Source of the DNA: a virus
Length of the DNA: 51,263 nucleotides
Reading direction: 5' to 3' (one strand)
Virus record (IMG/VR): IMGVR_UViG_3300045988_171568
In this document: positions 2,336-51,263 of the stretch, one piece after another
How positions within the stretch are numbered: the stretch's first letter is position 1
Layout of the letters: each line of letters starts with the position of its first letter
Notes under the pieces: model-generated
Databases searched by the model: none
What the model was told of the DNA's origin: nothing
The model's input: the letters and a program-made list of their open reading frames with translations, nothing else
Position numbers and translations under genes: made by a program

Positions 2336-2548
2336 ATGACAAACGAAAGAAAAGTTAGTGAATTGGGGTATGAAGACCAATACAATTCTTTATCCAGAGA
2401 AGATAAAGTAAGAGTACGCGACGAGTTTATGAGGATAACAGGCTTATCCTACCCTACTTTTTATAACAAGATGAAAAATGGATTTCGCCCTATAGAGGAA
2501 AAAGTCTTTATAGAGATTTTAAACAATTTATCTTATGCAGAACATTGA
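2336..2548 (+). CDS. Small DNA-binding protein (Cro- or excisionase-like), first gene of the rightward early operon
   Basis: 70 aa, divergent from the repressor. HTH-like segment ITGLSYPTFYNKMKNG. Confidence 0.45.
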   Translation: MTNERKVSELGYEDQYNSLSREDKVRVRDEFMRITGLSYPTFYNKMKNGFRPIEEKVFIEILNNLSYAEH

Positions 2549-3092: not shown

Positions 3093-3093
3093 T

Positions 3094-3390: not shown

Positions 3391-3587
3391 ACACCGATTT
3401 ATCCGGACGATATTCCATTATGGAACTTAACGATGAACAGCTCAGAATTATCACAGATGCACTTGTCCGGTTTGCATGCTGCCCGTCAAAACAGAAATCA
3501 CAACGGAACCAGGCTAAACATATAGCCTTAAAACTAACAGAACAACATGATTACACTCAATATACAGATCAACAGAATGCTAGTTAA
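3381..3587 (+). CDS. Hypothetical early protein
   Basis: 68-aa ORF overlapping its neighbours by a few nt. Confidence 0.35.
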   Translation: MYVDTDLSGRYSIMELNDEQLRIITDALVRFACCPSKQKSQRNQAKHIALKLTEQHDYTQYTDQQNAS

Positions 3588-3762
3588 GCCTTTGTTGGAA
3601 AATACTATGAAAGAGAATTACCCGTTTAACATTACCATTAAGAATAAACGAGAAATAGACAACGGCTGTGTTATGCAGCATGTCACTGTTGATTTTGACG
3701 AAAAAAACGAAGAACTCTTTAATGAAACTATTTCCGCAATTATTAATAAGTCCATAAAATGA
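3547..3762 (+). CDS. Hypothetical early protein (the start may be the internal ATG near 3607)
   Basis: 71-aa ORF in the operon. Confidence 0.3.
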   Translation: MITLNIQINRMLVKPLLENTMKENYPFNITIKNKREIDNGCVMQHVTVDFDEKNEELFNETISAIINKSIK

Positions 3763-4082
3763 AAGAAAACGATTTTTCAAAATTCCGTTTACCTGACGAT
3801 TCTTCCGGAGAATGGATTATGTCTGTCATTCAGGATATGGGGCTGAAAGCCTATACAGAATACGAGGATAAGGTATACAAAGCTCTGGACGGACTTAAAG
3901 AAGGAAAATACTTTGATATTAACGATGTCAAAGAAGAAGACAGAGAAATGTTTATCAAGATATCCTGCCTGTACATCCGTCAGCATCCCAATGTAATTTT
4001 TAACGGCACATATACACATATACATAAGGAGAAGATATATGAATCAAGGGAAATGGACAGTAGCAGAAAAAAAGTTTGTTGA
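3759..4082 (+). CDS. Hypothetical early protein
   Basis: 107-aa ORF with an ATGA-type overlap to the upstream ORF. Confidence 0.4.
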   Translation: MKENDFSKFRLPDDSSGEWIMSVIQDMGLKAYTEYEDKVYKALDGLKEGKYFDINDVKEEDREMFIKISCLYIRQHPNVIFNGTYTHIHKEKIYESREMDSSRKKVC

Positions 4083-4440
4083 AGACAATGTAGGCAAGCT
4101 TACCGTCGAAGAAATGGCTTCTCGCATTAACCGTTCACCGGTTGCAGTCAAGATGTATATTCTTCGCAATCGTATCGACCTGAAAGGCAAGGTACATCGA
4201 AACATTTTTCAGGAAATCCTTAAAATAAAGTTTGTCAACCCGGAATACTTCAAGCCTACACGCAATTTTTACAAAGCCGTAGGAATTACGCAGACGCGGT
4301 TCTGGGACTTATACTACGGACGTGTACAGATCACACAAATGGAGTATATAGCAATCACATCGCACCTAGGTGTTACTCTTCAGGAAGCATTCGAGGCGCA
4401 GCAGTTAAACCTCTTTGAAGGAGAATTAAAAAATGAGTAA
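4039..4440 (+). CDS. Putative DNA-binding protein (Myb/SANT-like N-terminus, XRE-like HTH C-terminus)
   Basis: 133 aa. Contains WTVAEKKFVEDNVGKLTVEEMASRINRSPVAVKMYILRNR and AVGITQTRFWDLYYGRVQITQMEYIAITSHLGVTLQEAF. Confidence 0.45.
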   Translation: MNQGKWTVAEKKFVEDNVGKLTVEEMASRINRSPVAVKMYILRNRIDLKGKVHRNIFQEILKIKFVNPEYFKPTRNFYKAVGITQTRFWDLYYGRVQITQMEYIAITSHLGVTLQEAFEAQQLNLFEGELKNE

Positions 4441-8458: not shown

Positions 8459-8469
8459 CAAACAGCAAT

Positions 8470-8697
8470 ATGATTACAGATAATCCATTAAAAAGTAAGA
8501 TTGATTTAGAAAAGAATCCCAAAGGGACAGAGTTAAAGGTAGCCTTACAGCGCGAACGCGAAAAAAGCGGTCGCTATGTATCCATACCAGGCGACAAGAG
8601 TCACACAAAGATTTTTGTCCGTGACGGAGAAGATCCAGAAAAACGGATCTTGTCTTTCATCAAAAAGATTAATAACAGAACTACAATGTGGAATTAG
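8470..8697 (+). CDS. Hypothetical protein
   Basis: 75-aa ORF. Confidence 0.35.
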   Translation: MITDNPLKSKIDLEKNPKGTELKVALQREREKSGRYVSIPGDKSHTKIFVRDGEDPEKRILSFIKKINNRTTMWN

Positions 8698-9545
8698 ATA
8701 TGGACTTAACAAAAAAAATAGATTATTCGATAAGCCTTTTAAGAAAGTGTGAAAACATGGCTCTTGAAATGGATCCTGAAAACGGCTTTTATTTAGCTTT
8801 TTCTGGGGGGAAAGATTCACAGGTCTTGTTTCATTTAGCTATAATGAGTGGTGTAAAATTTAAAGCTCACATGAATCTCACGAGTGTAGATCCTCCGGAA
8901 GTTATCAGATTTGTAAAACAACATTATCCTGATGTAGTACTGATAAAGCCTAGAATGAGTATTTATGATATGGTAAAAAAAAGAGGATGTCTTCCTACTA
9001 AAAGAGTCAGATGGTGCTGTGAAGAATTTAAAGAAATGTCAGGAGCCGGTAAGGTTACGTTAATCGGAATAAGGCGAGAGGAAAGCGCAAGAAGATCGAA
9101 GCGTAATGAGGTAGAAATGGATAATTATAAATTCAGAGGAAGCTTTGACCAGTGGAGCGAGCATCGCGAAAAAATGGTGACTTGCGTGGGAGGGAAAGAT
9201 AAAATAATTGTCAGTCCGATACTCTACTGGACGAGCCGCGATGTTTGGGAGTTCCTTAGCTCAAACGACATACCTCATTGCAGTCTTTACGACAAAGGGT
9301 ATAAAAGAATAGGTTGCATACTCTGTCCAATGTCAAATTATAAACAAAAGATTAGAGAGATAAGAGATTATCCGCATGTTAAAAGAAATTGGATAAAAGC
9401 TATAGAGTGGATGATGGAAAATAAATGGACTGAAAAACGTTTAGCAGATAATCCTGAAATGGCTTTCAACTGGTGGATAAGCGGAAAATCTTTCAAACAG
9501 TTTTATGCAGATGAATATTTGCAACAAAAAATAAATTTTGATTAA
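8688..9545 (+). CDS. PAPS-reductase / PP-loop ATPase family protein (phage IbrA/DndC-like)
   Basis: 285 aa. PP-loop LAFSGGKDSQV. C-terminal Cys cluster RIGCILCPM. Confidence 0.75.
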   Translation: MELDMDLTKKIDYSISLLRKCENMALEMDPENGFYLAFSGGKDSQVLFHLAIMSGVKFKAHMNLTSVDPPEVIRFVKQHYPDVVLIKPRMSIYDMVKKRGCLPTKRVRWCCEEFKEMSGAGKVTLIGIRREESARRSKRNEVEMDNYKFRGSFDQWSEHREKMVTCVGGKDKIIVSPILYWTSRDVWEFLSSNDIPHCSLYDKGYKRIGCILCPMSNYKQKIREIRDYPHVKRNWIKAIEWMMENKWTEKRLADNPEMAFNWWISGKSFKQFYADEYLQQKINFD

Positions 9546-15197: not shown

Positions 15198-17192
15198 ATG
15201 AATTTCAAGGAAAAAGTTCAAAAAGTATTTCAGAAGTTGGGTTGGACCGCAACTAAGGAATCCATGGATGCAATGACTGCGGAAAAATGGCAAGAATTAT
15301 TCAAAGCGTACAAAGAAGAATTTTCTGTCGATTTTAAAGCAGACATGGAGGCTTACACTCAAGAACAAGCCAACTTGCCAGGTCAGAAAGAAATCACAGA
15401 AGCATACAATATAATGAAAGGTATTATATGCCCTGACCAATCTTCTGCTACCGGCGAACAGCAAAAAGATCAGTCTTCTTCTCAGGAGCAGCCTACAGGA
15501 AAGCAGGTGCTTGATATGGCTATGGCTATTCAGGCAACTATGTCGGCAATGGCAAAAAATGCAGCTCCCGACGTTCCGGCTGCAACAGTTTCTACTGCCG
15601 GAATCATTGGCTTTGTTGGAAACGCACCGGAAGAGAAGTTCCTCTATGGTATCGACAATCCGTTCTTTTCAATGGAAAAGCCCTGGAACCAGGTAGGCAA
15701 ACCGGGATTCTCTTTGCCAAGCGACAAAAAAACGGCTGCTGCCTTTGCTGCCGAAGTAGAATCTTTCTCTGCAAGTCTGCAAGACCGTTACAATTATCTT
15801 CAGAAGCACAATCAGCTAAATGCTGAAAAGCTGGCAGCCGGAGAATTTACTACCGACTATTCTCAGGTTACATCCATGAAGGGAGGCGACCAGTATCTTA
15901 TCCGCCGACAGGATGCTATTATCGCACGCGTACTGTCTATCCGTCAGCTTACGCAGTATTTCCCTGTTCGTTACGGTATTCAGGACCGTGATGTAATTTT
16001 CAATGCCTTCTTCGGCGAAACTTCACAGGCTTATCAGACTGGAGAAGTCTACAAGGGAGATATGGAAATTGCACCGGAAATGGGTTACGTAGACGATGCC
16101 ATGATCAAGATGAAGTTCGGTCCTATGAAAGAACTTGAACGCATGTATATCGGCTACCTGAACCGTGAAGGTTCCGATCCTATCAAATGGTCTATGATTG
16201 AGTTTGCCGTAATGGGAGCTTTGGAAACTGCTCAGCGCGAACAGAACATGCGCCGTATGCGCGGTATTTATGTGAAACCAGAAACAGGTGTTGCCGGTTC
16301 TTATCTCAATGCCGGTACTGGTGTACTGTATACGCTTATCCGTCTGGCTCATGAAAACAAGCTGCTGCTGAATGATACTATTACCGCCTACGACGAAGCT
16401 ACCATGCTCGATACCGTTCAGAACTTCCACTCTCAGATTTTGGCTAAGGTATCAGAAGACATGAGCCTCGAAAATCATGTAATGTATCTGAACGAAAATC
16501 ATAAGCAGTGGTGGATTGCTTGTATCCGTGAGAAATATGGCAATCAGCAGGACTTTACCGGACCTGGAAGCTATATGAATGTCATTCCGGATACTGACAT
16601 GCGCATTATCTGGCTGCCTTATCTGGGACAGTTGCCGTTCATGATGATTCAGGAGCCGGGTAACATTCAGTTCCTCGAAAATCTGCCTGGCGAAATGATG
16701 GCTATTCAGACAGAAATGCAGATGGAAATGGTTCGTGCGTGGTCTGTATGGAAAGAAGGATGTTCTCCTGCCTTCTGCGGAAAGAACTTTACTTCGGCTG
16801 ATAAGCTGAAAGAAAACGACTATCAGTTCCAGCAGATCTTCATGGTGAAACCTTCTGTCAAGCTGGATGCCGATGCAGTTACGGCTGATGCTTCAAAAGG
16901 ATTCTGGTTTGTTACCGGAACAAATACCGGAACAAAGGATCTTACCAGCATCGACAAAGCCAAGAAAGGTGTTGCCTACATTATCGAATGTGGTGATATT
17001 ACCAACGTTACCAGCGTACAGAAGTCCGGTAACTTCGATTCTATCGAAAGCGCATGGACTCCTACTGCTGTTGGCGATTACATTATGGTTAAGCTTGACA
17101 GTAAGAACAAGTTCATCGAGCTTGAAAGATGTGTCGGAGGTACACGTACAATCAATGTTAAGGCACAGCCTAATGTTCCGGGTGCAAGATAA
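15198..17192 (+). CDS. Major capsid protein (with an N-terminal scaffold-like or delta extension)
   Basis: 664 aa. Positioned after the protease. Helical and low-complexity N-terminus. Followed by a strong hairpin. No motif-level proof. Confidence 0.55.
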   Translation: MNFKEKVQKVFQKLGWTATKESMDAMTAEKWQELFKAYKEEFSVDFKADMEAYTQEQANLPGQKEITEAYNIMKGIICPDQSSATGEQQKDQSSSQEQPTGKQVLDMAMAIQATMSAMAKNAAPDVPAATVSTAGIIGFVGNAPEEKFLYGIDNPFFSMEKPWNQVGKPGFSLPSDKKTAAAFAAEVESFSASLQDRYNYLQKHNQLNAEKLAAGEFTTDYSQVTSMKGGDQYLIRRQDAIIARVLSIRQLTQYFPVRYGIQDRDVIFNAFFGETSQAYQTGEVYKGDMEIAPEMGYVDDAMIKMKFGPMKELERMYIGYLNREGSDPIKWSMIEFAVMGALETAQREQNMRRMRGIYVKPETGVAGSYLNAGTGVLYTLIRLAHENKLLLNDTITAYDEATMLDTVQNFHSQILAKVSEDMSLENHVMYLNENHKQWWIACIREKYGNQQDFTGPGSYMNVIPDTDMRIIWLPYLGQLPFMMIQEPGNIQFLENLPGEMMAIQTEMQMEMVRAWSVWKEGCSPAFCGKNFTSADKLKENDYQFQQIFMVKPSVKLDADAVTADASKGFWFVTGTNTGTKDLTSIDKAKKGVAYIIECGDITNVTSVQKSGNFDSIESAWTPTAVGDYIMVKLDSKNKFIELERCVGGTRTINVKAQPNVPGAR

Positions 17193-33072: not shown

Positions 33073-34152
33073 ATGGATTTTAAAGATTCTATTAAGCAAC
33101 TTTCAGACCGTGTTTTAAAGCTGAAAGATAATATCCTGACAGAAGAAGCTACTAAAAATGCATTTATTATGCCATTTATCAATGCATTAGGATATGATGT
33201 ATTTAATCCTTTAGAAGTTATTCCAGAAATGACTTGCGATATAGCAATGAAAAAAGGAGAAAAAATTGATTATGCTATAATGAAAGATGGAGAACCTATT
33301 CTTTTAATAGAGTGTAAACATTGGCAACAAGATCTTAATTTGCACGATAATCAATTAATAAGATATTTTAATGTGTCAAAAGCAAAATTTGGCTTGTTAA
33401 CAAATGGTATAATATATCGTTTTTATACAGATTTATTAGAGCCAAATAAAATGGATGAAAAACCTTTTTTAGAAGTAGATATTACTGATGTAAAAGATTC
33501 TCAAATAGAAGAACTTAAAAAGTTTCATAAATCATATTTTGATATTGATAACATATTAAGCTCTGCAAGTGAATTAAAATATATGGGAGAACTTAAGGGT
33601 ATTATGAATAAAGAATTTAGTAATCCTTCTCCTGAATTAGTTAAGTTATTTGCAAAACAAATATATGACGGTCCTATTACAGCAAAACTTTTAGAACAGT
33701 TTACTGTATTAACAAAAAAATCTATTTCCAGCTATATAAATGAAATTATATCTGACCGTCTAAAAACTGCTTTAAAAACAGAATCAGATGTTGTAAACTC
33801 AGAACAATCAGTTTCTTTACATCAAGAAGAATCTGTTCAGAATGAAGATAATAAGATTGTTACAACTGAAGAAGAAATTGAAAGTTATCTTATTGTAAAA
33901 TCTATATTACGACCTTATGTAGATATTTCACGAGTTTTTTACAGAGATGCGCAAACCTATTTTGCTATACTGCTTGATGACAATAACAGAAAACCTATTT
34001 GTAGAATGTATTTTAATGCCATAAGTAAAAAATACATTGCTACATTCGATTCACAGAAAAAAGAAACAAAGCATGAAATCTCTTCATTAAATGATATATA
34101 TGAATATAGTAAAGAACTTATTGACATTGTAAAATCATACGATGAAAAGTAA
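33073..34152 (+). CDS. HsdR_N-type (PD-(D/E)xK-like) nuclease-domain protein
   Basis: 359 aa. N-terminal EEATKNAFIMPFINALGY...KIDYAI...PILLIECKHW...GLLTNG matches the pattern of the type I restriction R-subunit N-terminal domain. Very AT-rich. Has its own promoter near 33000-33051. Confidence 0.55.
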   Translation: MDFKDSIKQLSDRVLKLKDNILTEEATKNAFIMPFINALGYDVFNPLEVIPEMTCDIAMKKGEKIDYAIMKDGEPILLIECKHWQQDLNLHDNQLIRYFNVSKAKFGLLTNGIIYRFYTDLLEPNKMDEKPFLEVDITDVKDSQIEELKKFHKSYFDIDNILSSASELKYMGELKGIMNKEFSNPSPELVKLFAKQIYDGPITAKLLEQFTVLTKKSISSYINEIISDRLKTALKTESDVVNSEQSVSLHQEESVQNEDNKIVTTEEEIESYLIVKSILRPYVDISRVFYRDAQTYFAILLDDNNRKPICRMYFNAISKKYIATFDSQKKETKHEISSLNDIYEYSKELIDIVKSYDEK

Positions 34153-40563: not shown

Positions 40564-43281
40564 ATGACTTTTATACAGAAACCGGACAATCTTTGTCTTT
40601 CCCGCAATATCACAAAAGTTATTGTTTCGTCGGAAGACGTTTTTTCTTTTGAGCTGAAAAAAGGAGAAGATGTCCTATTCTCTGCATCGTATACCCCCGA
40701 CAAAAACAATCGGGCTGAAATTGATATCAGAGAAATTGTGCATACTTCTCTGTCTTTTACGCTGAAAGAACAGACTACATCTTATGTACAGAGTAACCTG
40801 GTTGCCGATTTTACCATATCGCTTAATTCTGGCGAACTGACTGCATCGTTCCGGGCTATACGCGCTGGCGTAGACCGAAGCTCTGTAGATGCTGCAATCT
40901 TTTTAAAAGCCAATTTTCTGACCTGGCAGCCTCAGGTTAAAAAGGTTACATATTCCACTCCAGAATATCTTACTTTTTATGCAGTTTCCGATTGCGTAGT
41001 ACGTCTGAAAGCTTATTTCAACGAAGGTGAAGAAACAACTTCAGAAGAAATAGAACTCTATAATGCCAGTGCAGGAAGTGCTTATACGCTTCCAATGGAA
41101 TATGCAGTTATATCCGCAAAATTTGATTCCCGATTCCCTTCATTCTACGATGTATGGGTAGAAGATACAGTTGGCGCACGTCTTACTTATGTACAGCGTT
41201 ACGTGGCAAGTGATATCTTGTCAGAACGCGAGCACTGGATCCTGTTCGAAAACTCATTGGGAGGTATAGACACTATCCGCGCATACGGACAGTGTGATTT
41301 TACCGCCGATCATACGCATAACATTGCTGTTATTGATGAAGTATCTACAGAATATTCAGTAGACACGGAACGGATCTTTGAAAAGTCAACCGGATATTTA
41401 ACTCCCCAGGAAAGAACCTGGCTGCTCGATTTTTTGCCGTCGGCACAGAAGTATATTTTTGCCGGAAATGCTTTGCGCCCTATTGTCGTGACAGAAGACA
41501 ATACTGCATATACCGAAGAAGATCTTCCTTCAGAATATACATTCTCGTATAAGTACGCAGATGCAACTCCCCTGCTGAATATTACTCGTGCTGAAGAATT
41601 ACCGGAAATTTTAGACATTAAAGTTCCCGATCTTGGTTCTTTTTCTATACCCCCTCGGCTGATTGAATTTCCTTCTCTTAATCTTTCCGAGGGGGCACTA
41701 TTCCCGGTTCAGCATCCTTTTTCTGAAAACTGGGCTGTAACTACTGCCGGTGAGTTGTATAATTACATTCTCTCTCGCATAGCCGCAAACCCCGAAAGCG
41801 GAACAGGCGGTACAGGACATACGCATGCTAACTATAGCCTGCTGTCGGCTTTGTCACTTTTTCAAAAATACTTGCTTGTAAACGGCGAAAAAATAAATGC
41901 CGGAACGGCAGATCTGGCTAATGAGCTTTCGGAAGAATTACATGCTAGATTACTTCACAAAGACAAAGAAGACGGCACTAACTTCTTATTAAAGTTTGGC
42001 GAGTTTATTGACAGCATGATTGCCGGCAAGGGTGCTGGTATATTCCCCGACGGTCGTGGACAATTCTCAAGGCTGGAGGTACGTGATGCACTTGTTGTAA
42101 TGCGGCTTATCATAAATGAGATTCAGGCGATGGCAGGTGATTTCTCTTTCAGCGATGCAGGATGTATCGAAAAGGTGGAAGACCTGGGAGACGACACTTA
42201 CAAATTGTGGATGGAGAAGCGTACAGAATATGATGTGACAAATTTTACTGAAAACGACATAATGTATTCCATCATCAATAATCTGCTGACTGGAGGCACG
42301 GATTATTACACAAGCTGGTTCCGCTGTCTGACAAAGAACGTCAACGACAACACGCTAACGGTAGTGCTCTATCCTGATTCAGAAGTGCCTGGAGGGAAAA
42401 ACTATCCTCCGGTGGCCGGATACAACGTCACTCGACGTGGTAACTCTGTATTGCCAGACGAAGGAGAAGTGAACGAGCGTGCGCAGAGCTGGCTGCTCTC
42501 CAGCCGAGAAGGGCGCATCATGTTCCTCGCCAATGTCTACAAGCCTATATTGGAAGATTACAACTACGCCATCAGTATCGGTAAATTCCCTAATATTAAA
42601 GCTTTGGATAATCTTCCGGTCACTACAGAAGACGTGGGTGTGATGGCCAAGACTATCGTCTGCGAACGGCTATATCAATATGATTATAACGGTGATGTCA
42701 TATCTAACAAGGTGGACCGCGGCGAATGGTCGCTCACAGTGGCGCAGTCAGAGCAGCCTTATCGCTTTATTCAACACGATAGACTTTATCCGGACGGACA
42801 GCACACGTTTACGGAACTGGAGCAGCACACCGTCTATCATTACGGATGCAAGTGGGGTTGCTTGGTAGACAAGACGGAAGATGAACCTGTATGGAACTCC
42901 CCCTCGTGGTCTTTACTTGAAGGCGACAAGAATTATCATCTTGACTTCGAAAGTTCGAATGGATGGCAGTTCTTCATTCAGCAGGTCAATACAGACATTA
43001 CAGCAGTAGTAAGTTATGGTAACAGAAATATAACTAACGTTCTCATGGCTACAGATGGAGTGGAGGTAGAATGGCTTCGTGACACAGGAAACATACCATC
43101 AGATAACAGTTGGAAACCTACATACGTTGACGGTCAGAAGCATGTCATACATCTATCCGTAGCCGATATGGGTAGTGGTTGGGGAAGTGAGTATCGGAAG
43201 ATAAATTTCATCTGTAGGATATTTATACCTGTAGGAGAAAATTTTGAAACAGTGGAAAACAAAATTAACATCAAAATATAG
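40564..43281 (+). CDS. Large tail tip / baseplate-hub or receptor-binding protein
   Basis: 905 aa. Contains the fibre-like motif GTGGTGHTHANYSLLSAL. Confidence 0.5.
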   Translation: MTFIQKPDNLCLSRNITKVIVSSEDVFSFELKKGEDVLFSASYTPDKNNRAEIDIREIVHTSLSFTLKEQTTSYVQSNLVADFTISLNSGELTASFRAIRAGVDRSSVDAAIFLKANFLTWQPQVKKVTYSTPEYLTFYAVSDCVVRLKAYFNEGEETTSEEIELYNASAGSAYTLPMEYAVISAKFDSRFPSFYDVWVEDTVGARLTYVQRYVASDILSEREHWILFENSLGGIDTIRAYGQCDFTADHTHNIAVIDEVSTEYSVDTERIFEKSTGYLTPQERTWLLDFLPSAQKYIFAGNALRPIVVTEDNTAYTEEDLPSEYTFSYKYADATPLLNITRAEELPEILDIKVPDLGSFSIPPRLIEFPSLNLSEGALFPVQHPFSENWAVTTAGELYNYILSRIAANPESGTGGTGHTHANYSLLSALSLFQKYLLVNGEKINAGTADLANELSEELHARLLHKDKEDGTNFLLKFGEFIDSMIAGKGAGIFPDGRGQFSRLEVRDALVVMRLIINEIQAMAGDFSFSDAGCIEKVEDLGDDTYKLWMEKRTEYDVTNFTENDIMYSIINNLLTGGTDYYTSWFRCLTKNVNDNTLTVVLYPDSEVPGGKNYPPVAGYNVTRRGNSVLPDEGEVNERAQSWLLSSREGRIMFLANVYKPILEDYNYAISIGKFPNIKALDNLPVTTEDVGVMAKTIVCERLYQYDYNGDVISNKVDRGEWSLTVAQSEQPYRFIQHDRLYPDGQHTFTELEQHTVYHYGCKWGCLVDKTEDEPVWNSPSWSLLEGDKNYHLDFESSNGWQFFIQQVNTDITAVVSYGNRNITNVLMATDGVEVEWLRDTGNIPSDNSWKPTYVDGQKHVIHLSVADMGSGWGSEYRKINFICRIFIPVGENFETVENKINIKI

Positions 43282-43284
43282 ATT

Positions 43285-43494
43285 ATGAAAGAAGTCTTTG
43301 TAAGGTATTCGATTCATGAATGTATTGGGAAAGTGGCTAATGGAACTTTATCCAGAGAAATGCATATTTCCGATATAATTGATATAGAAGAAGATAAAGT
43401 AGACGATTTGCAATACATTAAAGATAAGCTATCAGAAATGTATGGTTTTTTTACATATCAGATAGAAATTAAATATATAAAATCATGGCAATAA
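43285..43494 (+). CDS. Hypothetical small tail-module protein
   Basis: 69-aa ORF. Confidence 0.35.
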   Translation: MKEVFVRYSIHECIGKVANGTLSREMHISDIIDIEEDKVDDLQYIKDKLSEMYGFFTYQIEIKYIKSWQ

Positions 43495-44681
43495 ATACGA
43501 ATGTAAAGGACATATCAGTACATGTAGACCCGATTTCCTTCATTGCAGACATTGAGATACTGAGCGGAAATACCGCACAGACCTATAACCAGGACACTAA
43601 GGAATATGAGCCGGACCGTTCGCTTGTCCCCTGCGTGCTGATGCCTTACGTGCAGGTGTCCGACCCTGAGGGGGTGATGAACGGTAACAGGACGATTACG
43701 GGTGTGGAATGGTACGAAGGATCTCCGAAAGCGGACGGTAGCAACCGTATATCGAACAACGACAATTATGTCATATCCGACACCGGACTTCCGACCTATT
43801 CTTTGAAGGTGAAGAAAAATGTAGAGCCAAATACTCCGATGGATATCTTTGCCATCTTCACGATTACGGATACCCGTAGGAATACGGAAGTTAAAGTGGA
43901 ACGCAGCGTATCTCTATATACGGCTCTGTATGATACAAAGGTTCTTAACATGCGGTTGATGGACCAGCCCCAGGGATGGTTTATCGACCCGACAAGGGAG
44001 AAAGCAGACTCATCCGGAAGATGGATGCACACTATCACAGCACAGCTTTTTTCAGGAAAGGAAGAAGTTCCTGATGCTAATGCGGCTTACTGGTGGGAAA
44101 TAAATACCGACAATTCTACATGGAGGCAGATTACACAGGACGAACTGGACATCTTCATTTCAGGCAAGGATAGCAGCGGGAACTGGACAAAATCGCTCAC
44201 GTTCGATGCACGTTTTGTGCGTACGGCTGCATTCCGTTGCCGTGCGGCATATTATACAGGAACACGCCCTTCCGCTCCGGAGCTGGAGAACCTGCAGGTG
44301 ACATCTACTGTTAAGGTTGAAATGCCGAAGACGTTGAGAGCAAGCATACGGCAACTTTCAGGAGCAAAGATTAATGCTTCGATGAGCACGACTGTCAGGT
44401 TTGAATGTGTTCTGACTGACAACAAGCAGGTGATAACCTACAATGACAAGCTGTTTTCTATTGTCTGGAAAGCAAAATCCGGAAAAGCGGGCGTGTCTGA
44501 CAAGACAATCGGTAAAGGTAATACCATCAGCTTTACGCCTTCATCCTTGGGATTCGATAAGGCATATTCCATGGCCGTGTATGCAGAGGTAAAGATGTAT
44601 GCGGTCACGGCGTTGGTAACCAGCGGGGGTAAAGTAATGATTAATAACAACAAGGCTGTCATAGCCACAAAATTTGAATAA
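43485..44681 (+). CDS. Tail-associated protein (beta-rich, Ig-like repeats suspected)
   Basis: 398-aa ORF in the tail module. Confidence 0.4.
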   Translation: MAINTNVKDISVHVDPISFIADIEILSGNTAQTYNQDTKEYEPDRSLVPCVLMPYVQVSDPEGVMNGNRTITGVEWYEGSPKADGSNRISNNDNYVISDTGLPTYSLKVKKNVEPNTPMDIFAIFTITDTRRNTEVKVERSVSLYTALYDTKVLNMRLMDQPQGWFIDPTREKADSSGRWMHTITAQLFSGKEEVPDANAAYWWEINTDNSTWRQITQDELDIFISGKDSSGNWTKSLTFDARFVRTAAFRCRAAYYTGTRPSAPELENLQVTSTVKVEMPKTLRASIRQLSGAKINASMSTTVRFECVLTDNKQVITYNDKLFSIVWKAKSGKAGVSDKTIGKGNTISFTPSSLGFDKAYSMAVYAEVKMYAVTALVTSGGKVMINNNKAVIATKFE

Positions 44682-44964
44682 TATGGGATATCTACTTGTT
44701 AAACCTGAAGTGCTTGAATCAAAAGGAATCAAGTATTTCGAACGTATGCCGGACGGTAGGGCAATTGCCGATTTCTCCATGTTGCGGGTAATAGGTAGCG
44801 TAGGAGATGTACAGATAGTATCTTCTGCTGAGGAACTGAAGAAGATGATTGAGGATCAGAAGGCCAGCGGACAGTATGAAACTGTCGATACAGAATCCGG
44901 TACACAAGAAACGGATGGAGATAATGATGTAGTTGTGCCTGATATGGAGGAAGGAGGTGAATAA
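44674..44964 (+). CDS. Small acidic tail-module protein
   Basis: 96 aa. Its 3' end encodes MEEGGE and carries AGGAGGTGA before the next ATG. Confidence 0.4.
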   Translation: MNNMGYLLVKPEVLESKGIKYFERMPDGRAIADFSMLRVIGSVGDVQIVSSAEELKKMIEDQKASGQYETVDTESGTQETDGDNDVVVPDMEEGGE

Positions 44965-46031
44965 TGAATCTGGAAGGTGGATTTACACTAATTGGACTGA
45001 TGGATGGTACAACTATAAATGGATTCATCCGCGTAGAAGGAACCCCTCTTGTACAACGGTACAACAAGGGGACCAGTCAGTTTATCCCTGATTTTGAAGG
45101 ACTGGCCGACAACATGAAGCCGACTTTGGTAACCATTCTTCGTGATGTGGCAACTGGAGAAATCATGATTCCTCATGAAATCACGTATAAGTACAACGGG
45201 GTAACACTAACTTTCGGCTCTGACGGACTTTCTACGAACGGCGGAATGACTGGATATTTCAAAAAAATAGACAATTATTCGGCGACAATCGGCTCCCAGT
45301 CTTACCAGTTGACTGCATTGCGGGTAATGAAGAACCTTGTTCCTATATCCGGATACGACAACGACCGTATCAGTGTATCTGGTACGATAGAAGTAGGCGG
45401 ACAGAACATTTCATTCAATGAGCTGTCGAAGAATGTGGTTATACAGGAAATGACAGGCAATGCCTATGATGTGATCATATCGGATGACAAGGGCGGTGCC
45501 CTGACAGAGGCCGGTGAGTCACTGACATGTACTGCTACACTCTACAAGGACGGTGTGGAAGTTACGGATTATTCCGGTTTTACTTACCAATGGGTGAAAC
45601 TTCTCGGTACCGGTGACTCGGACTGGGGTACTTCACGTACACAGAAAGTCACTGCGGGTGACATTGATAACATATTGAAACTTCGTTGTGACATTAAGTC
45701 AGGAGGCAGTGTGATAGCCTCCGGCTTCACGCAGATAACCGACTATTCCGACCCGTACTATGTAGATTTCAATATAACGGGGATTACGGGTAATACAATT
45801 CGTTCTGGGGAGACGGCTGTAGTGAAACCCGTAGCGCGGAAACGTTCAGACGGCACAGACGGAGGCATATCAAACTGGGACTGGAACATAAGGAATAATG
45901 CCGGAAATGCATTTATTCTTTCTGACAAAGAATCCGAAACATTTAATGCTGCTACAGTAAGTATAAGCTATGCGGACATTAAGCGTGCAGGAATGGGTAT
46001 TAGTGGAAGTGTTAGTGCAATAATTGAATAA
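44964..46031 (+). CDS. Tail fibre / Ig-like domain protein
   Basis: 355 aa with a TAATG overlap. Confidence 0.4.
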   Translation: MNLEGGFTLIGLMDGTTINGFIRVEGTPLVQRYNKGTSQFIPDFEGLADNMKPTLVTILRDVATGEIMIPHEITYKYNGVTLTFGSDGLSTNGGMTGYFKKIDNYSATIGSQSYQLTALRVMKNLVPISGYDNDRISVSGTIEVGGQNISFNELSKNVVIQEMTGNAYDVIISDDKGGALTEAGESLTCTATLYKDGVEVTDYSGFTYQWVKLLGTGDSDWGTSRTQKVTAGDIDNILKLRCDIKSGGSVIASGFTQITDYSDPYYVDFNITGITGNTIRSGETAVVKPVARKRSDGTDGGISNWDWNIRNNAGNAFILSDKESETFNAATVSISYADIKRAGMGISGSVSAIIE

Positions 46032-46041
46032 AGGAGGTTAT

Positions 46042-47415
46042 ATGATAGCGACAGGTGCTTTCTCTTTGATAGGGGTGCAAGATGCTGTAATCAATGAGTC
46101 AATTTATATAAGAACAGCGCAAAATGTAAAGCCTGAGACTCCCGTTTCTGATTCAGGTAAAATACCTGAAGGATGGAGTGCTACAATGCTTGATGTATCA
46201 GCATCATTTCCTTATTTGTGGGAAAGTCAAAGGGCAAGAACAGAAATGTATTCGTCGAATGACATTTCTAATGCTGTTTTCGTGTATGCAGGTTATAGAA
46301 TTAGCAATACGGGAAATAAAATTTCGGATGCGAATTACAAGTATAGCGATAACATAAAACTCTCTAAAGGTCAGGTTATAGAGGTAAATACAGCGGGAAG
46401 CTCTGTATCGGTTATTTCATTGTCTAATGGAAGCACGGCGAGTTTTACCCCTGTTAAAACTTTAAATAGCACCGTTCCACAAGTGTCTACCTACACAGCG
46501 GATGAAGATTGCAATGTCGTAGTTTGTGTTAAGACTACTTCTGCATACAGTGTTAAGATATACACTGCAAGTTACGGTGCATGGTCTACTCCAACCTTAA
46601 AAAACAGCTGGGGTAAACAAGGTGCAAAACTGCGAATGAGAACATGGGCAGAGGGTGTGGAGTATTTGCAAGGAGCAGATGGAGAAGAATTTTATGATGT
46701 TGTTGTATATAATAATAAATTATATCTATGCACCAAAACTCATACCTCTGACTCTAACAACAACCCTTCATCTTCTATATCAGGATATTTGGGTTTTTGG
46801 GAATCTGCTCAAGAATGGACTTTTATCGCAACAAAGTTACTATTAGCTGAGAAGATTAACGCAGAACAGATTAATGCAGATGGAATTAAAGCTAAAAATG
46901 TAGATATCGAAGGAAAGATTACTGCAACTTCTGGAATTCTTGGAGGATTTACAGTCACTCAATCAGCAATAGGCTCTACCGATGTTGGTGATAGTTTATT
47001 ACTTATGAGAAATGGTATATCATTTAACAATAAAAAAAAGACGGCTGGGATTGGTGATACCTTACCTGGATCTACAGGAATTGTATCCAAAGTTGCTGGT
47101 ATATTTACGACAACTTTAGATAAATACGACTTACATTCAGAAGGTATTGGGACATTAATTGTACAATCTAAGGGAGGTGTATCACATACTGCGTTAAGTA
47201 TAGTAACTGAAGGACGTGATAATGATACAGCGATTGATTTTCGTGGTAAAATTAACACTCATGGTAGTGAGTTAGGCGGATCTTTTGGTGATTACGGCCT
47301 GACTACAGCAGTTGGATTTCAGCATGTATGGGACCCCTCGGCTGGTAGATTTAGACTGGGAGATTTGTTTTTTGTAAATGGAATATTAACCGGTGTCAGA
47401 TGGCACGATAATTAA
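46042..47415 (+). CDS. Tail fibre protein
   Basis: About 457 aa from MIATGAF. AAGGAGG lies 5 nt upstream. Fibre-like segment LLLAEKINAEQINADGIKAKNVDIEGKITATSGILGGFTV. The ORF-track start at 46024 is a TTG. Confidence 0.55.
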   Translation: MIATGAFSLIGVQDAVINESIYIRTAQNVKPETPVSDSGKIPEGWSATMLDVSASFPYLWESQRARTEMYSSNDISNAVFVYAGYRISNTGNKISDANYKYSDNIKLSKGQVIEVNTAGSSVSVISLSNGSTASFTPVKTLNSTVPQVSTYTADEDCNVVVCVKTTSAYSVKIYTASYGAWSTPTLKNSWGKQGAKLRMRTWAEGVEYLQGADGEEFYDVVVYNNKLYLCTKTHTSDSNNNPSSSISGYLGFWESAQEWTFIATKLLLAEKINAEQINADGIKAKNVDIEGKITATSGILGGFTVTQSAIGSTDVGDSLLLMRNGISFNNKKKTAGIGDTLPGSTGIVSKVAGIFTTTLDKYDLHSEGIGTLIVQSKGGVSHTALSIVTEGRDNDTAIDFRGKINTHGSELGGSFGDYGLTTAVGFQHVWDPSAGRFRLGDLFFVNGILTGVRWHDN

Positions 47416-47439
47416 TAAAAATTTTAAATTAGGAAGATT

Positions 47440-47940
47440 ATGGAAACAATAGATTTTAATGAAGTAATAAGAGATAATATTGAGGTTGTGGGAGGACTAC
47501 TGGGAGTAGTATCCCAATCAAGTAATGGCCTGGCAACTGGAAATCTGTATAAAGCAGCAGGCGTAAGCATATCGGTTCCTTCCGACCTATGCTTGAAAAT
47601 AGAACGCAACAAAAAATCAAATAGTATCGTTCTAATAAATGTTACTGCTTTTAATTCACCTACTTGGTCAACAACCAGCAAACCAAGAAAGGTTTCGTTG
47701 TCGATACCATATGATAGTGGTGAAATAGAAAAAATCTATGCAAAAAACCTACTTGATGGTTCTAGTATGAAAATTTATAAAGATGAGAATTTTAATCTGT
47801 ATATTAAATGCATGGATACATACTCTACGGCATTTTTCATCGAAATCATACAAGGTAATGAAGCATTCTCTAAAATATCTTCTATACCTTTATCTGATGT
47901 ACCCAATATTGATCAATATGAACAAATAACAATCAATTAA
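47440..47940 (+). CDS. Fibre-tip or adhesin candidate, currently expressed variant (constant N-terminus plus variable body A)
   Basis: 166 aa. METIDFNEVIRDNIEVVGGLL precedes the divergent body. Last plus-strand tail gene. Confidence 0.5.
   Translation: METIDFNEVIRDNIEVVGGLLGVVSQSSNGLATGNLYKAAGVSISVPSDLCLKIERNKKSNSIVLINVTAFNSPTWSTTSKPRKVSLSIPYDSGEIEKIYAKNLLDGSSMKIYKDENFNLYIKCMDTYSTAFFIEIIQGNEAFSKISSIPLSDVPNIDQYEQITIN
47485..47498 (+). repeat. Left inverted repeat GTTGTGGGAGGACT (candidate recombination site)
   Basis: Perfect reverse-complement match to 48461-48474. Same codon phase in both ORFs. Confidence 0.6.
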
Positions 47941-47965
47941 TCTGTGTGGAGATATAACAGAGTTA

Positions 47966-47996
47966 CTCCCACGGTACTAAATTGTCACTGTGGGAG
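47966..47996. terminator. Hairpin between the convergent variant ORFs
   Basis: 7-bp arms CTCCCAC (47966-47972) and GTGGGAG (47990-47996), with a 17-nt loop. Confidence 0.4.
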
Positions 47997-48003
47997 GTTA
48001 TGA

Positions 48004-48474
48004 TTACTCAGCAGGAGGATTTACTATCATATCAGAAACGTCCAATTTTGTGAAGCCAGATTCGGATGGGCTGTTAAGTACCCCGTTAAACTTAGCATAG
48101 GATAAAGACAATATCTGATAGCTGCCAAAATCAAAATGCCCCCATCTCACATATACTGTATCATCCTTATAACAGACATACCCGAACGATTTAAAATTGC
48201 CAGATTTGTCGTGTACAAATGACATTCTTTTTGCAGAATATACTCCACTAGAGTTCCTGCAGACAGATAAAAATATAATTGCATTCTGGCCATCTCCTCG
48301 TCCACATACAAGTCTTAGCATTACAGAAGAGTTGTTAGGCATCGAAAAATTTAAGGTATTAATCACTCCTCCATTTGAATTATTGTCAACTTTACGTGAT
48401 GAGTAAGTAAATGCAATAGAGGACATTAATCCTTTTGCATTATCCGTCGCAATCGGTAACAGTCCTCCCACAAC
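48004..48474 (-). CDS. Silent alternative fibre-tip variant (body B); no ATG and no promoter in this orientation
   Basis: Homolog of 47440-47940 (VVGGLLPIATDNAKGLMSS..., ...YKDDTVYVRW). In-frame upstream there are only 15 codons back to a stop, and they lie within a terminator hairpin. The ORF track opens it on a GTG inside the repeat. Confidence 0.5.
   Translation of the reverse strand, partial: VVGGLLPIATDNAKGLMSSIAFTYSSRKVDNNSNGGVINTLNFSMPNNSSVMLRLVCGRGDGQNAIIFLSVCRNSSGVYSAKRMSFVHDKSGNFKSFGYVCYKDDTVYVRWGHFDFGSYQILSLSYAKFNGVLNSPSESGFTKLDVSDMIVNPPAE
48461..48474 (-). repeat. Right inverted repeat (AGTCCTCCCACAAC on the plus strand)
   Basis: Reverse complement of 47485-47498. Confidence 0.6.
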
Positions 48475-48478
48475 GGCT

Positions 48479-48516
48479 AAAAAAATAGAGGCTAATCCAC
48501 ATTGGATAGCCTCTAT
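48479..48516 (-). terminator. Intrinsic terminator of the recombinase gene 48541-49692
   Basis: 10-bp stem ATAGAGGCTA/TAGCCTCTAT followed by T7 on the minus strand. Confidence 0.7.
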
Positions 48517-48540
48517 TTACGCTACAAAGATATGAATTAT

Positions 48541-49692
48541 TTATAATTTCTGTAACTGTCGAACGAAAGCATTATCATTAATTCGAGCATATATCATCGT
48601 CATGCTTATTTGTCTATGTCCGATTACTTGCTGTATAGTCGTGATAGGTATATCTCTATTGATTAATCGTGATGCACATGTATGTCTGGCTACGTGAGCC
48701 GTTACATGTTTTTTTAGACTGCATTTTTTTAATGCTACTTGTAATTTTGAATTAAAGCTGCAACGATTTACCCCCACGTTGAAAAATTCAGAAAGCCTTG
48801 TTTTATATTTACTGTATATCTGTTCTGCACGACCATCAAATAAAGCCCACATTGGCAATCGTACTGGTGTGCTAGTTTTTACTGATGTATATTCCAACCA
48901 AAGCCGACCGTTGTCTTCTTTAAAATTATCTTCAGACAGAGAAGCAAAGTCACTTATTCTAGTACCTACATAACACATAAAAAGAAACTGATCTAGTACC
49001 AGCTCGTGAGATTTGTCTGCAATTCCTGAAGCTGCATAGTTCTCTATAATTCGTACATCATCATCGCTTAGTGCTTTCATCTTATAAGTTGATTTAAAAT
49101 CTTTTGGATCATGATAAAACGCTAAAGAATCAGCCGGAACTTTGTTCCCGTATAATTTACGTGCGATGTTATAATATGCCTTAACAACGTGCATTTCTTT
49201 GCAGACTGTAGAATACTTTAGTTTTCCTGATTCCATTAGAAAATTCATAAATCCACGAAAGAACTCCTCTGTCAATGCTGTTACAGGACATGTATCTCTG
49301 TATCTTTTCAATGTCCTAAGTACATTTGCGTGAATTTCTATAGTTCGAGGCTTCAATCCTCTTTCGTACATAGCCTTTTCCCACATAGAATACCAATCAG
49401 CCGATGTTCCACGCCTGGAATAAATGTCGTGCAATTTAGTTAGAGTCATTTCGCCTGCATAAGTCAGTTCAATTTCCTCTAAGCTATAAACAAGTTTCCT
49501 GATTAATAGGTTAAGATTAGCAGAATTTGGACTTTTAGAAATAAGCCCGTAATCTTCGTTCCATTCGTCATTAAAGACTCTTACGTCAGTGTCAAGTTCA
49601 ATACTTGATCCATACTGGGAACACTTCACAAAAATAGCGAGCATTCCGCTGTGAGCACGATGTGCCACAACTTCAAATCTGATTTTGTTCAT
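48541..49692 (-). CDS. Tyrosine recombinase (candidate invertase for the adjacent cassette, or a second integrase)
   Basis: 383 aa. Bacteroidetes integrase architecture. C-terminal HVARHTCASRL...VIGHRQISMTMIYARI gives the R/H-x-x-R/Y catalytic pattern. Confidence 0.8.
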   Translation of the reverse strand: MNKIRFEVVAHRAHSGMLAIFVKCSQYGSSIELDTDVRVFNDEWNEDYGLISKSPNSANLNLLIRKLVYSLEEIELTYAGEMTLTKLHDIYSRRGTSADWYSMWEKAMYERGLKPRTIEIHANVLRTLKRYRDTCPVTALTEEFFRGFMNFLMESGKLKYSTVCKEMHVVKAYYNIARKLYGNKVPADSLAFYHDPKDFKSTYKMKALSDDDVRIIENYAASGIADKSHELVLDQFLFMCYVGTRISDFASLSEDNFKEDNGRLWLEYTSVKTSTPVRLPMWALFDGRAEQIYSKYKTRLSEFFNVGVNRCSFNSKLQVALKKCSLKKHVTAHVARHTCASRLINRDIPITTIQQVIGHRQISMTMIYARINDNAFVRQLQKL

Positions 49693-49846
49693 ATATTAAG
49701 TTATTAAATGCAGTCTTAATATACGAAAAAAAAGATATATATGCAATATTTTTATATTAAAAATGTATCTTTGTAAAGATAGTTCATATGAATTATTAAA
49801 TGCAACAAAGGGGGATTTTATCAAGTGTGATAATTCCCCCTTTACT

Positions 49847-51016
49847 TTATACAGCAAACGAGTTAAAGAATTTAACCCCTTCCTGCTTTGACTCTTCCAG
49901 GACATGAGCATATATCAGCGTTTCCCGGTAATCGGAATGTCCCATGATTTCCTTTAATGTTGCCAGATCTTTTGTTTTTTGCAAAAATAGGGTAGCAAAA
50001 GTATGCCGGCCTGCTTTGCTGGATAATGGTTTGTTTATACCAACTTTTCTGGCGATACGCTTAAGGTATTCGTTTATCTTCTGGTCTGATATCACTGTTG
50101 TAAACAACAATCCGTTTTTTCTCTTGCCTGAAGCTTTCTTGATTATTTTCTTCAACGGATCTGACAAAGGTATTACAATAGGATCAGGTTTACTGTTCCG
50201 TAGCTTTATTCGGTAATAAGTAAATGAACTTTTCCCAATACCTTCTATTCTTATGTTCTTTGCGTCCCCAATATGAAGACTGCTAAAGCACATAAACAAA
50301 AATATTTGTAAGACAGACTGGTAATTTTCTGTAAGAGAATTAGACTTGTATAAGTCAACAAGTGTTGTTAGTTCTTCTTCCGTGAGATAAGTAAAATCAC
50401 TTTTAGATCGTGTTTTTACCTTTATGTTTTCAAAAGGATTTTTAGTCATGTATCCTTCTTTGATAGCGGCACGACAGTATTTTTTTATGCAACTCATATT
50501 CTTATTTATGGTACTGTCTTTGTTTTTGAGCTTTTTCTTAAGATACACTTTGTATTTTAAGATAAAATCTTCGTCCAGGCATTCCAGTCTTAAATCAGGA
50601 TCATAAACTCTCATCTTATTGATTGCATCCAGATGCACATCAATCGTAGAACTCTCCAGTTCCCCGCGATGGCGGTGCATATAATCCTTGACATAATCAT
50701 AGAAGGTCCTGAAATCATCCGGACGATTGTATTCTTTCATAAAGGTTTCCTTGGTAAGAGTCTTTTTCAGCAGACGATATCTTACCATGATGTCGTTAAC
50801 TCGTGCTCTGATCTTTTCGATACACAGATTATAATCCTTGTGATTCTTTTCTCGTGTGAGAACTTTTCCGGTCACATTATCGAAGTTTTCTACCAGGATT
50901 GAAAGATTTGTAGGAATCGCAATTTTTTTTCTTTCTACGTAGAAAGAAACATAAACAGGGGCACACCCGTCCTTGTTTACATAGCTTGTCGCTTGATAAG
51001 TTTTAATAACAGCCAT
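49847..51016 (-). CDS. int: Tyrosine integrase next to attR/tRNA-Cys
   Basis: 389 aa. N-terminal arm-binding-like domain. C-terminal AGRHTFATLF...IMGHSDYRETLIYAHV. Arm-type repeats lie immediately upstream. Confidence 0.85.
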   Translation of the reverse strand: MAVIKTYQATSYVNKDGCAPVYVSFYVERKKIAIPTNLSILVENFDNVTGKVLTREKNHKDYNLCIEKIRARVNDIMVRYRLLKKTLTKETFMKEYNRPDDFRTFYDYVKDYMHRHRGELESSTIDVHLDAINKMRVYDPDLRLECLDEDFILKYKVYLKKKLKNKDSTINKNMSCIKKYCRAAIKEGYMTKNPFENIKVKTRSKSDFTYLTEEELTTLVDLYKSNSLTENYQSVLQIFLFMCFSSLHIGDAKNIRIEGIGKSSFTYYRIKLRNSKPDPIVIPLSDPLKKIIKKASGKRKNGLLFTTVISDQKINEYLKRIARKVGINKPLSSKAGRHTFATLFLQKTKDLATLKEIMGHSDYRETLIYAHVLEESKQEGVKFFNSFAV

Positions 51017-51034
51017 AATTTCGTTTTTTCTAAA

Positions 51035-51135
51035 TTTTTACTACAATCTTAGTAAAATGCTGATATAAAACGCTTTGTTTTAATAGGCAATTTACTAAGA
51101 CCTGATTTCGCAAAGAACTGTTTTTCAGTAAAATA
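51035..51135. promoter_or_regulatory. attR arm: TTTTTACTAC plus three degenerate TTTACTA-like sites in both orientations
   Basis: Exact 10-mer at 51035-51044. Related sites at about 51049-51058 (reverse), 51089-51098 (forward) and 51127-51135 (reverse). Confidence 0.45.
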
Positions 51136-51170
51136 CAAAAAAGAGCAAACAGTGTGTAACTATTCGCTCT
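51136..51170 (-). terminator. Phage-supplied intrinsic terminator for the reconstituted tRNA-Cys
   Basis: 8-bp stem whose one non-Watson-Crick position is a G-U pair only on the minus-strand transcript (A-C on the plus strand). T6 on the minus strand. Confidence 0.6.
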
Positions 51171-51185
51171 TCATTTGAATTTCTA

Positions 51186-51202
51186 CTATGAGGTTCCTGG
51201 CG
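51186..51202. repeat. attR core (CTATGAGGTTCCTGGCG)
   Basis: Exact match to 1716-1732. Confidence 0.85.
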
Positions 51203-51262
51203 GATTCGAACCGCCGTACACGGTTTTGCAGACCGCTGACTAAGCCACTCATCCAAGGAACC
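51191..51262 (-). tRNA. tRNA-Cys (anticodon GCA), copy 2, the integration target
   Basis: 72-nt cloverleaf: GGTTCCT acceptor, CTGCAAA anticodon loop, GGCGG-TTCGAAT-CCGCC T-arm, discriminator T. Confidence 0.95.
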
Positions 51263-51263
51263 A

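Follow-up and report, generated by a model that had tools for sequence, protein, structure and literature searches.

Do the two convergent open reading frames (ORFs) that lie between a tail-fibre gene and a tyrosine recombinase gene in the virus record IMGVR_UViG_3300045988_171568 encode two independent proteins, or two alternative ends of a single protein that are exchanged by DNA inversion? The record, hereafter the window, is a stretch of 51,263 nt to which all coordinates refer, and it corresponds to a prophage cut at its own attachment (att) repeats. The two ORFs, at 47440-47940 on the plus strand and at 48004-48474 on the minus strand, each contain one arm of a short inverted repeat. The evidence makes it probable, at roughly 85%, that the locus is a site-specific inversion switch, namely a minimal shufflon of one segment and two cassettes, in the late tail operon of a temperate gut Bacteroidales prophage of the siphovirus type residing at tRNA-Cys.

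The left site (47485-47498, plus strand), GTTGTGGGAGGACT, codes for VVGGL and forms the head of cassette A, while the right site (48461-48474, minus strand), AGTCCTCCCACAAC, is its inverted copy and forms the head of cassette B. The two match at 14 of 14 nt with an inter-arm distance of 962 nt, and both are read in the phase GTT GTG GGA GGA CT. The perfect 14-bp repeat with a shared codon phase, as described in the initial annotation, is thus borne out by the sequence positions and the reading frames. The invertible unit spans 47485-48474 (990 bp) and contains two full sites and two bodies. Upstream of the left site stands the constant leader METIDFNEVIRDNIE (47440-47484, plus strand), which is preceded by AGGAAG, holds the sole ATG of the switch and is joined, in the present orientation, to the body of cassette A (47499-47940, plus strand) to give a product of 166 aa. 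The body of cassette B (48004-48460, minus strand) has no ATG and lies immediately 3' of the intrinsic terminator of the recombinase gene (48478-48518, minus strand), a 12-bp stem followed by U7 that abuts the right site, the minus-strand copy starting 3 nt past the U-tract. This hairpin, which follows the stop codon of the recombinase gene, was missed by a consensus terminator scan and then confirmed by direct folding (-22.2 kcal/mol, z = -4.17, none of 200 shuffles as stable). Upstream of the repeat, the minus-strand frame stays open for 14 codons (IEAIQCGLASIFLA), not 15 as had been counted, and these lack an ATG and coincide with the hairpin and U7 of the terminator, in line with the earlier description. 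The accompanying claim that this copy has no start holds for ATG only, as a GTG inside the repeat (48469-48471) could start translation and is taken as the start by the ORF listing and by public gene callers. The unselected copy would otherwise be silent.

The two ORFs had also been regarded as distantly homologous, a view that stands for their N-terminal part. Indeed, BLASTP aligns 18 residues (VVGGLL..GL, E = 0.014), and profile-profile comparison of the A and B families aligns 45 columns at 95% probability, covering the leader and the VVGGL..GL motif only. The proposed C-terminal likeness between YKDENFNLYIKC and YKDDTVYVRW found no support, and homology of the bodies past the N-terminal motif was rejected, as both alignments are confined to the N-terminal part. 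At the DNA level, the identity of the two ORFs amounts to exactly 14 nt, the remaining part of the conserved protein motif being divergent.

A repeat of this length may also arise by chance. In shuffles of 47440-49692 a perfect 14-nt inverted pair is present in 1.3% of cases, a figure that rises to 11% in shuffles of 45500-51263. The window itself holds a second perfect 14-nt inverted pair, AGAAGGTATTGGGA, at 47139-47152 in the fibre gene and 50233-50246 in the integrase gene, which has no supporting feature and is apparently fortuitous, so that a 14-nt repeat alone proves little.

The inverted state is, however, documented in public assemblies. Members of the protein cluster of ORF B include a protein (P0055) made of METIDFNEVIRDNIEVVGGL joined to the body of 48004-48474, which is the fusion foreseen for the inverted state and is encoded on contigs including L036 and L037, which come from two sequencing runs. 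The predicted leader-B junction, looked for as an exact match among viral contigs, had given 0 hits. Aligned with the window, L036 and L037 fall into three pieces: 42437-47498 is collinear with locus 1-5059 (98.0% identity), 47485-48474 is inverted with respect to locus 6035-5046 (99.4%), and 48461-51216, with both recombinase genes inside, is again collinear with locus 6022-8777 (98.4%). The pieces overlap precisely at the two 14-bp repeats, which bears out the expectation that inversion fuses the constant start in frame to the alternative body. The native orientation, with the same recombinases, is carried by L041, L042, L044 and L049. Thus, comparison of homologous prophages, as proposed in the initial annotation, finds in assemblies both orientations of the same prophage, which is present in nature as both isomers with the crossover within the repeat. 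Two further pairs of loci are in opposite orientations. L001 and L021 share a 3-kb flank at 99.6% identity with the segment inverted at 99.1%, and in L011 and L014 the segment is inverted at 97.8%; the right flank of L021 is unlike that of L001, and L021 probably has a further segment. Moreover, of the 18 viral contigs about half break off no more than about 30-50 nt from a site, which is where an assembly would be expected to fork if the inversion is heterogeneous. No single sample with contigs in both orientations was found.

The same layout recurs in viral, metagenomic and genomic loci, hereafter the relatives. In these, the core GTGGGAG[G/A]ACT forms 58 unique sites, on either strand, each followed by an in-frame body starting with VGGL[L/I]. 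The bodies measure 84-164 aa and are mutually unrelated beyond the motif VGGL[L/I][P/G]xAxxxxxGL, and the outer side of the core shows no conservation across sites. The number of sites per locus ranges from 2 to 6, with two in the window, L001, L014 and L016, three in L038 and L045, four in L022 (1.7 kb) and six in L032 (2.7 kb), which belongs to a Bacteroides sp. metagenome-assembled genome and is the one, distant, locus retrieved by a genome-collection scan with ORF A. The constant start takes the form METIDFNEVIRD(N or PET)I(E or S)VVGGLL, others such as MIQKKSLKDAIQNPEIISVVGGLL, or that of a constant part of 60-135 aa. The leader type of the window is joined in the relatives to at least 10 unrelated bodies. 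Body B, in turn, is found with the METIDFNEV leader (P0055, P0059), with the MIQKK leader (P0052, L021, L022) and with longer constant parts (P0009, P0012, P0056). The sites are also the places where homology breaks. In particular, the left site is the breakpoint against L002, L003, L036 and L037, homology between the window and the almost identical phage L002 is lost at 47502 and is back at 48461, and L016 and L014 have flanks that are 99.9% identical and cassettes that differ, with breakpoints at the sites.

Four loci (L034, L035, L038, L039) are mosaics, in which a tail module and leader with 99% identity to the window precede the A/B segment in inverted orientation, and the right side carries another recombinase type, encoded on the opposite strand, and then lysis genes in place of the integrase. 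Megablast of 46000-49800 against GenBank phages gave no match. By tblastn, the fibre protein and the protein of 15198-17192, which matches an annotated major capsid protein, recovered distant relatives only (Bacteroides phage BS-TP2, Porphyromonas and Flavobacterium phages), among which no switch was found, BS-TP2 (L033) being without a core site. A profile search with the B family in 1.84 billion representative proteins returned three clusters only, too few for a deep alignment.

The cassettes are delimited at their other end as well. Between the convergent stop codons lies a central palindrome, CTCCCAC-N17-GTGGGAG (47966-47998), the halves of which are the tail motifs of A and B, inverted 7-8-nt copies of the core (CTCCCAC at 47967-47973 and GTGGGAGG at 47991-47998), so placed that each sits a few nt past the stop codon of its cassette. 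When folded as a possible terminator, the palindrome forms a stem and has no U-tract. The same arrangement is present between unrelated cassette pairs in L020, L027, L028, L030 and L032. Comparison of the window with L022, where B has another partner, shows homology starting at 47989, on the tail motif of B, and the window and L021 share the 987-bp A/B segment at 100% identity despite differing leaders and upstream tail genes. The cassettes thus act as modules, each delimited by a head motif and a tail motif. As for the junctions between segments, those that are head to head contain a spacer of about 28 nt with its own CTTTACAnnnnTGTAAAG-like palindrome in L022 (3808-3847), L004 (4895-4934), L005 (5062-5102) and L023 (1287-1326), and in L027, L028 and L030 the spacer is instead a 9-10-nt stretch containing GGGCC.

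It is conceivable, and offered here tentatively, that the cassettes are individually mobile and not merely invertible, in a sort of integron-like exchange layered on the shufflon. Each cassette is bounded by the head site GTGGGAGGACT and, after the stop codon, by the inverted core CCTCCCAC, and the minus-strand cassette consequently lies between two direct copies of CCTCCCAC. Recombination between the direct copies would excise the cassette as a single-site circle, which could then insert at the head site of any phage with the system. Such mobility would explain the 100% identity of the A/B segment across phages that differ in leaders, tail genes and recombinases, the homology breakpoints exactly on head and tail motifs, and the arrangements of L023 and L002, which resemble the products of cassette deletion.

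Which enzyme would act at the sites? The gene at 48541-49692 (minus strand), 67 nt from the right site, encodes a tyrosine recombinase of 383 aa, the candidate invertase, that matches Phage_integrase (2e-19) and Phage_int_SAM_5 in Pfam. A weak Arm-DNA-bind_5 match, SAM_5 and the catalytic domain give the product the three-part layout of Bacteroidetes integrases, and alignment with the L001 enzyme finds the catalytic R, H-x-x-R, H and Y in place. A second tyrosine recombinase of 389 aa (49847-51016, minus strand; Arm-DNA-bind_5, SAM_5 and Phage_integrase in Pfam) is encoded beside a tRNA-Cys gene (51190-51262, minus strand; ARAGORN) that forms the att direct repeat with the left end, as 1-71 is identical to 51193-51263 and is a copy of tRNA-Cys. 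This 71-base terminal repeat marks the window as a prophage bounded by its att repeat, and the location beside it makes the second recombinase the likely integrase. Both enzymes belong to PF00589 and are 22% identical to each other. Searches in Pfam, PHROGs and NCBIfam found no resolvase domain, and both neighbouring enzymes are tyrosine recombinases; the NCBIfam models for tyrosine-type DNA invertases reach 20-25 bits against cut-offs of about 221. The initial annotation was therefore right in naming the adjacent enzyme a tyrosine recombinase, with PF00589 and the catalytic residues as evidence, and its assignment of the second one to integration fits the position next to the tRNA-Cys/att repeat and the proposed division of labour.

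The connection of sites and recombinase extends to the relatives. In all of the approximately 29 related loci with enough flank, the last site has a tyrosine recombinase gene at a distance of no more than about 50-120 nt. The lineages involved are the window type, a same-strand type with about 49% identity to it, and a third with about 30% identity, which is encoded on the opposite strand and separates the switch from the lysis genes. The same A/B segment adjoins all three types, which are 30-49% identical to each other. In L001 and L034 the recombinase is flanked by the switch and the lysis genes, with every att site far away. Conversely, L003, which is the same phage as the window, has another body after the left site, no right site and an intact integrase, and has lost the first part of the recombinase gene, homology resuming at window position 49038; L010 has neither an inverted site nor a recombinase. 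This link is good circumstantial evidence, not proof, and the product of 48541-49692 most likely catalyses the inversion, judging from adjacency and co-loss.

From these elements a mechanism can be proposed. The constant start, an ATG and 15 codons, runs into a recombination site that itself codes for VVGGL, and recombination with the inverted copy 976 nt downstream would flip 47485-48474. The leader would thereby be joined in frame either to body A (166 aa, the present state) or to body B (171 aa), with the unselected body left without an ATG and directly behind the terminator. Inversion would be catalysed by the 48541-49692 recombinase at an asymmetric site, made of a conserved core and an inner, coding-side arm as in R64 sfx, whereas the second recombinase, by tRNA-Cys, would serve integration and excision. 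The constant N-terminus and the motif VVGGLLPxAxxxxxGL would dock on the tail or fibre and the variable beta-sandwich would bind the host surface, so that one lysogen could release virions of two adsorption specificities.

What is switched is a separate small ORF rather than the C-terminus of the fibre. The upstream gene (46024-47415, plus strand) encodes a tail-fibre protein of 463 aa with a Pfam CBM_5_12 domain (E = 5.6e-6) that is constant and outside the switch; it terminates at a stop codon of its own, 24 nt ahead of the switched ORF, which is preceded by AGGAAG, starts at 47440 and has only 16-20 constant residues. The fibre gene is kept at 98-99% in L002, L003 and L034-L049, and the two genes upstream of it match the tail protein phrog_3267. 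No family match was obtained in Pfam, PHROGs or NCBIfam for A, B, the fusion or the long constant parts of the relatives. Structure prediction of both variants, as had been suggested, was informative for one of them. AlphaFold2 models the A product as a beta-sandwich over residues 35-166 (predicted local distance difference test score, pLDDT, of about 90), the first 33 residues being of low confidence, while the model of body B is poor (pLDDT 49) and was left out of the fold search. The fold matches of body A are weak (TM 0.3-0.5) and comprise small uncharacterised gut-siphovirus proteins and distal parts of tail fibres or tailspikes. In other phages, the same bodies are joined to longer constant parts encoded directly 3' of proteins of 1,666 and of more than 2,400 residues, whose position just before the switch suggests that they are tail proteins. 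As a separate observation, body A follows a constant part of 100-135 aa in L050, L051 and L052, where the preceding proteins measure from 1,666 to more than 2,400 aa, and these contigs end 60-80 nt past the stop codon, near the central palindrome and not at the head site. The switched protein is most likely a distal tail subunit, the constant N-terminus of which would dock on the tail and the variable body of which would bind the host surface, a receptor-binding role to which its position and the weak fold matches point. The idea of a fibre tip that determines host range is thus favoured by the CBM_5_12 fibre gene ahead of the ORF and by the resemblance to distal fibres, but it stays an inference and the ORF is not the C-terminus of the fibre itself.

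Several points weigh against the inversion switch as outlined here. A 14-nt repeat is by itself modest evidence for a switch; switching within one lysogen is deduced from assemblies of different samples; and the GTG within the site could give some expression of the supposedly silent copy. The enzyme is assigned from adjacency and co-loss, and the three enzyme types flanking the same segment imply either that they share core specificity or that another enzyme acts. As to the protein, 16-20 constant residues are unusually short for a docking region, the fold matches are weak, the B model is poor and neither body has a family match. Some of these points lead to a reading in which the inversion is real and is driven by another enzyme, either the integrase of 49847-51016 or a host invertase in trans. 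Mpi of Bacteroides fragilis is an example of a host-encoded invertase acting in trans. The presence of one A/B segment and core beside recombinases that are 30-49% identical to each other would agree with this, as would the missing conservation of an outer arm and the inverted phage locus without a flanking recombinase in Bifidobacterium (PMC6109161). It is nonetheless unlikely, given that, wherever the flank is long enough, the last site has a recombinase gene about 50-120 nt away at most, in two orientations and several lineages, that the gene is truncated (L003) or absent (L010) exactly where the inverted site is absent, and that in L001 and L034 its neighbours are the switch and the lysis genes, att being far away. 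A somewhat more open matter, although still on the improbable side, is whether the switched protein is a tail-fibre assembly chaperone or a non-structural product, involved in superinfection exclusion or lysogenic conversion. Mu U/U' and P2 G are tail-fibre assembly chaperones, and a size of 150-175 aa together with a place right after the fibre gene fits such proteins, just as the lack of family annotation and the weak fold matches fit either option. However, the upstream fibre is constant, and to switch a chaperone but not its client would be pointless; the extreme diversity of the bodies behind conserved first 35 or so residues is what an adaptor joined to a binding domain would look like, the same bodies occur elsewhere on constant parts of 60-135 aa after very large, presumably tail, genes, and the best fold matches are distal fibre or tailspike parts. 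These observations speak for the distal tail subunit.

The remaining objections concern the switch as such. That the orientations are rare fixed rearrangements or assembly artefacts, and not programmed switching, could be argued from the consensus nature of the assemblies, their origin in different samples and the modest improbability of a 14-nt inverted repeat alone, but this is very improbable, as opposite orientations are found in three independent phage backgrounds with the breakpoints always on the same core. General homologous recombination is not efficient on a repeat as short as 14 bp, many contig ends lie at the sites, and every site has an in-frame body. In addition, read-level heterogeneity has been published for the BV01-like system (PMC13596623). 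Least credible of all is the notion that the two ORFs are independently expressed paralogues whose repeat merely reflects the VVGGL motif: the GTG start of the minus-strand ORF, from which gene callers predict a product of 155 aa, would suit it, and yet the two copies agree in DNA over exactly 14 nt and no further, the shared protein motif being otherwise encoded by different DNA, the leader-B fusion is present in the same phage, and the minus-strand copy begins 3 nt after the U-tract of a terminator.

Is a switch of this kind new? The initial annotation knew of no such arrangement in a Bacteroidales siphovirus-like prophage, but descriptions now exist, namely of the BV01-like shufflon (PMC13596623, September 2026) and of the Rin shufflon (PMC6109161, 2018); the locus of the window is not new in kind and is a minimal, two-cassette member. 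BV01-like Phocaeicola vulgatus phages carry an active multi-cassette tail-fibre shufflon, reported in a Research Square preprint of 16 September 2026 (PMC13596623), with the core TGGGAGAACT, three cassettes in 1.7 kb and six configurations, all seen in reads. It has a flanking recombinase and a carbohydrate-binding tail-fibre neighbour, and inversion alters the distal coding sequence of a tail protein (PMC13596623). This is the closest system, a likeness drawn from the published description. Both are found in temperate tailed phages of Bacteroidaceae, and in the window, too, a recombinase flanks the switch and a CBM_5_12 fibre gene adjoins it. The core TGGGAGGACT, present at both window sites, has one mismatch to the BV01 core, and the exact TGGGAGAACT is found in the relatives L006, L018 and L026 together with the same leader and recombinase types. 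The published 'tail protein 2 Pro14Ser' fits the MIQKKSLKDAIQNP leader of L001, L021 and L022. On the other hand, three cassettes, 1.7 kb and six configurations contrast with one 990-bp segment and two cassettes in the window, in which the switched ORF and the CBM fibre gene are clearly distinct. In BV01 the att-adjacent integrase is required for excision, and the phage has three PF00589 genes and another integration site (PMC8354205), compared with two PF00589 genes and tRNA-Cys here. In L038 (6532, minus strand) and in L045 and L046 (4492, minus strand) B has behind it a third cassette that faces the same way, with sites in the order + - -, and this three-body arrangement may correspond to the three cassettes of BV01.

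In the Rin shufflon of Bifidobacterium prophages, a phage tyrosine invertase switches receptor-binding-protein cassettes (Mavrich et al. 2018; PMC6109161). It resembles the window in having a tyrosine invertase by a constant N-terminal part (Rc), several variable C-terminal cassettes (Rv) and short asymmetric sites of 11 bp. It differs in that its rix site TTCCCTAACCC is unrelated to the window site GTGGGAGGACT, its enzyme is armless and XerD-like where that of the window has SAM_5 and a weak Arm-DNA-bind_5 match, its host is actinobacterial, and Rc is a full N-terminus of a receptor-binding protein as opposed to a 16-residue leader. In the R64/IncI1 shufflon, Rci acts at 19-bp sfx sites to switch the C-terminal part of the PilV adhesin. 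A tyrosine recombinase, an in-frame C-terminal swap, asymmetric sites with a core and one arm, and several segments in related loci are common to both systems, whereas the target is the tip protein of a plasmid conjugative pilus with a different site sequence in R64 and an ORF of a phage tail operon in the window. Mu G, P1 C, p15B Min and e14 Pin are host-range switches of phage tail fibres in which serine invertases (Gin, Cin, Min, Pin) act at crossover sites of 26 bp and which have a Fis-dependent enhancer. These segments likewise hold two convergent alternative coding ends after a constant part, a functional likeness only, as they use serine instead of tyrosine recombinases and their Sc makes up most of the fibre compared with 16-20 residues here. 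The layout had been likened to Mu G, P1 C, p15B Min and the R64 shufflon, and what survives of this is the shared logic, the enzyme family being different from that of Mu, P1 and p15B. With regard to the product, the gp38 adhesins of T2, T6 and S16 are small separate proteins encoded after the fibre gene. The analogy concerns the protein only, since in the proposed model the N-terminus would attach to the fibre end and the variable part would recognise the receptor; no sequence or convincing fold similarity to gp38 was found, and gp38 is not switched by inversion. Finally, unlike Bacteroides Tsr-type promoter invertons, the window exchanges coding sequence and no promoter, and the invertase models score below cut-off.

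Bacteroidaceae vary capsules and surface proteins by DNA inversion, and the switching of a phage tail would be the matching counter-move, by which one prophage would hedge between host surface types. Compared with the BV01 preprint, the present data place the system in several phage backbones, with constant N-termini of at least four kinds and recombinases of three types, and add a minimal and clean case with two states, two 14-bp sites, one candidate enzyme and both isomers documented in nature; the cassettes bounded by head and tail motifs also appear to move between phages. Variants locked in one orientation could help to establish which receptors gut Bacteroides phages use, and the cassette library may be a natural source of exchangeable binding domains.

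Other genes of the window lie apart from the switch. A glycoside hydrolase family 88 gene (390-1640, minus strand; E = 3.6e-78) is found just inside the left repeat, before a phage repressor-like helix-turn-helix gene, and could be either cargo of the phage or a fragment of host DNA. A protein with an HSDR_N domain, typical of the N-terminus of the type I restriction enzyme R protein, is encoded among the morphogenesis genes (33073-34152, plus strand), and a 1,341-aa protein (4433-8458, plus strand) has a DnaG-type primase at its N-terminus.

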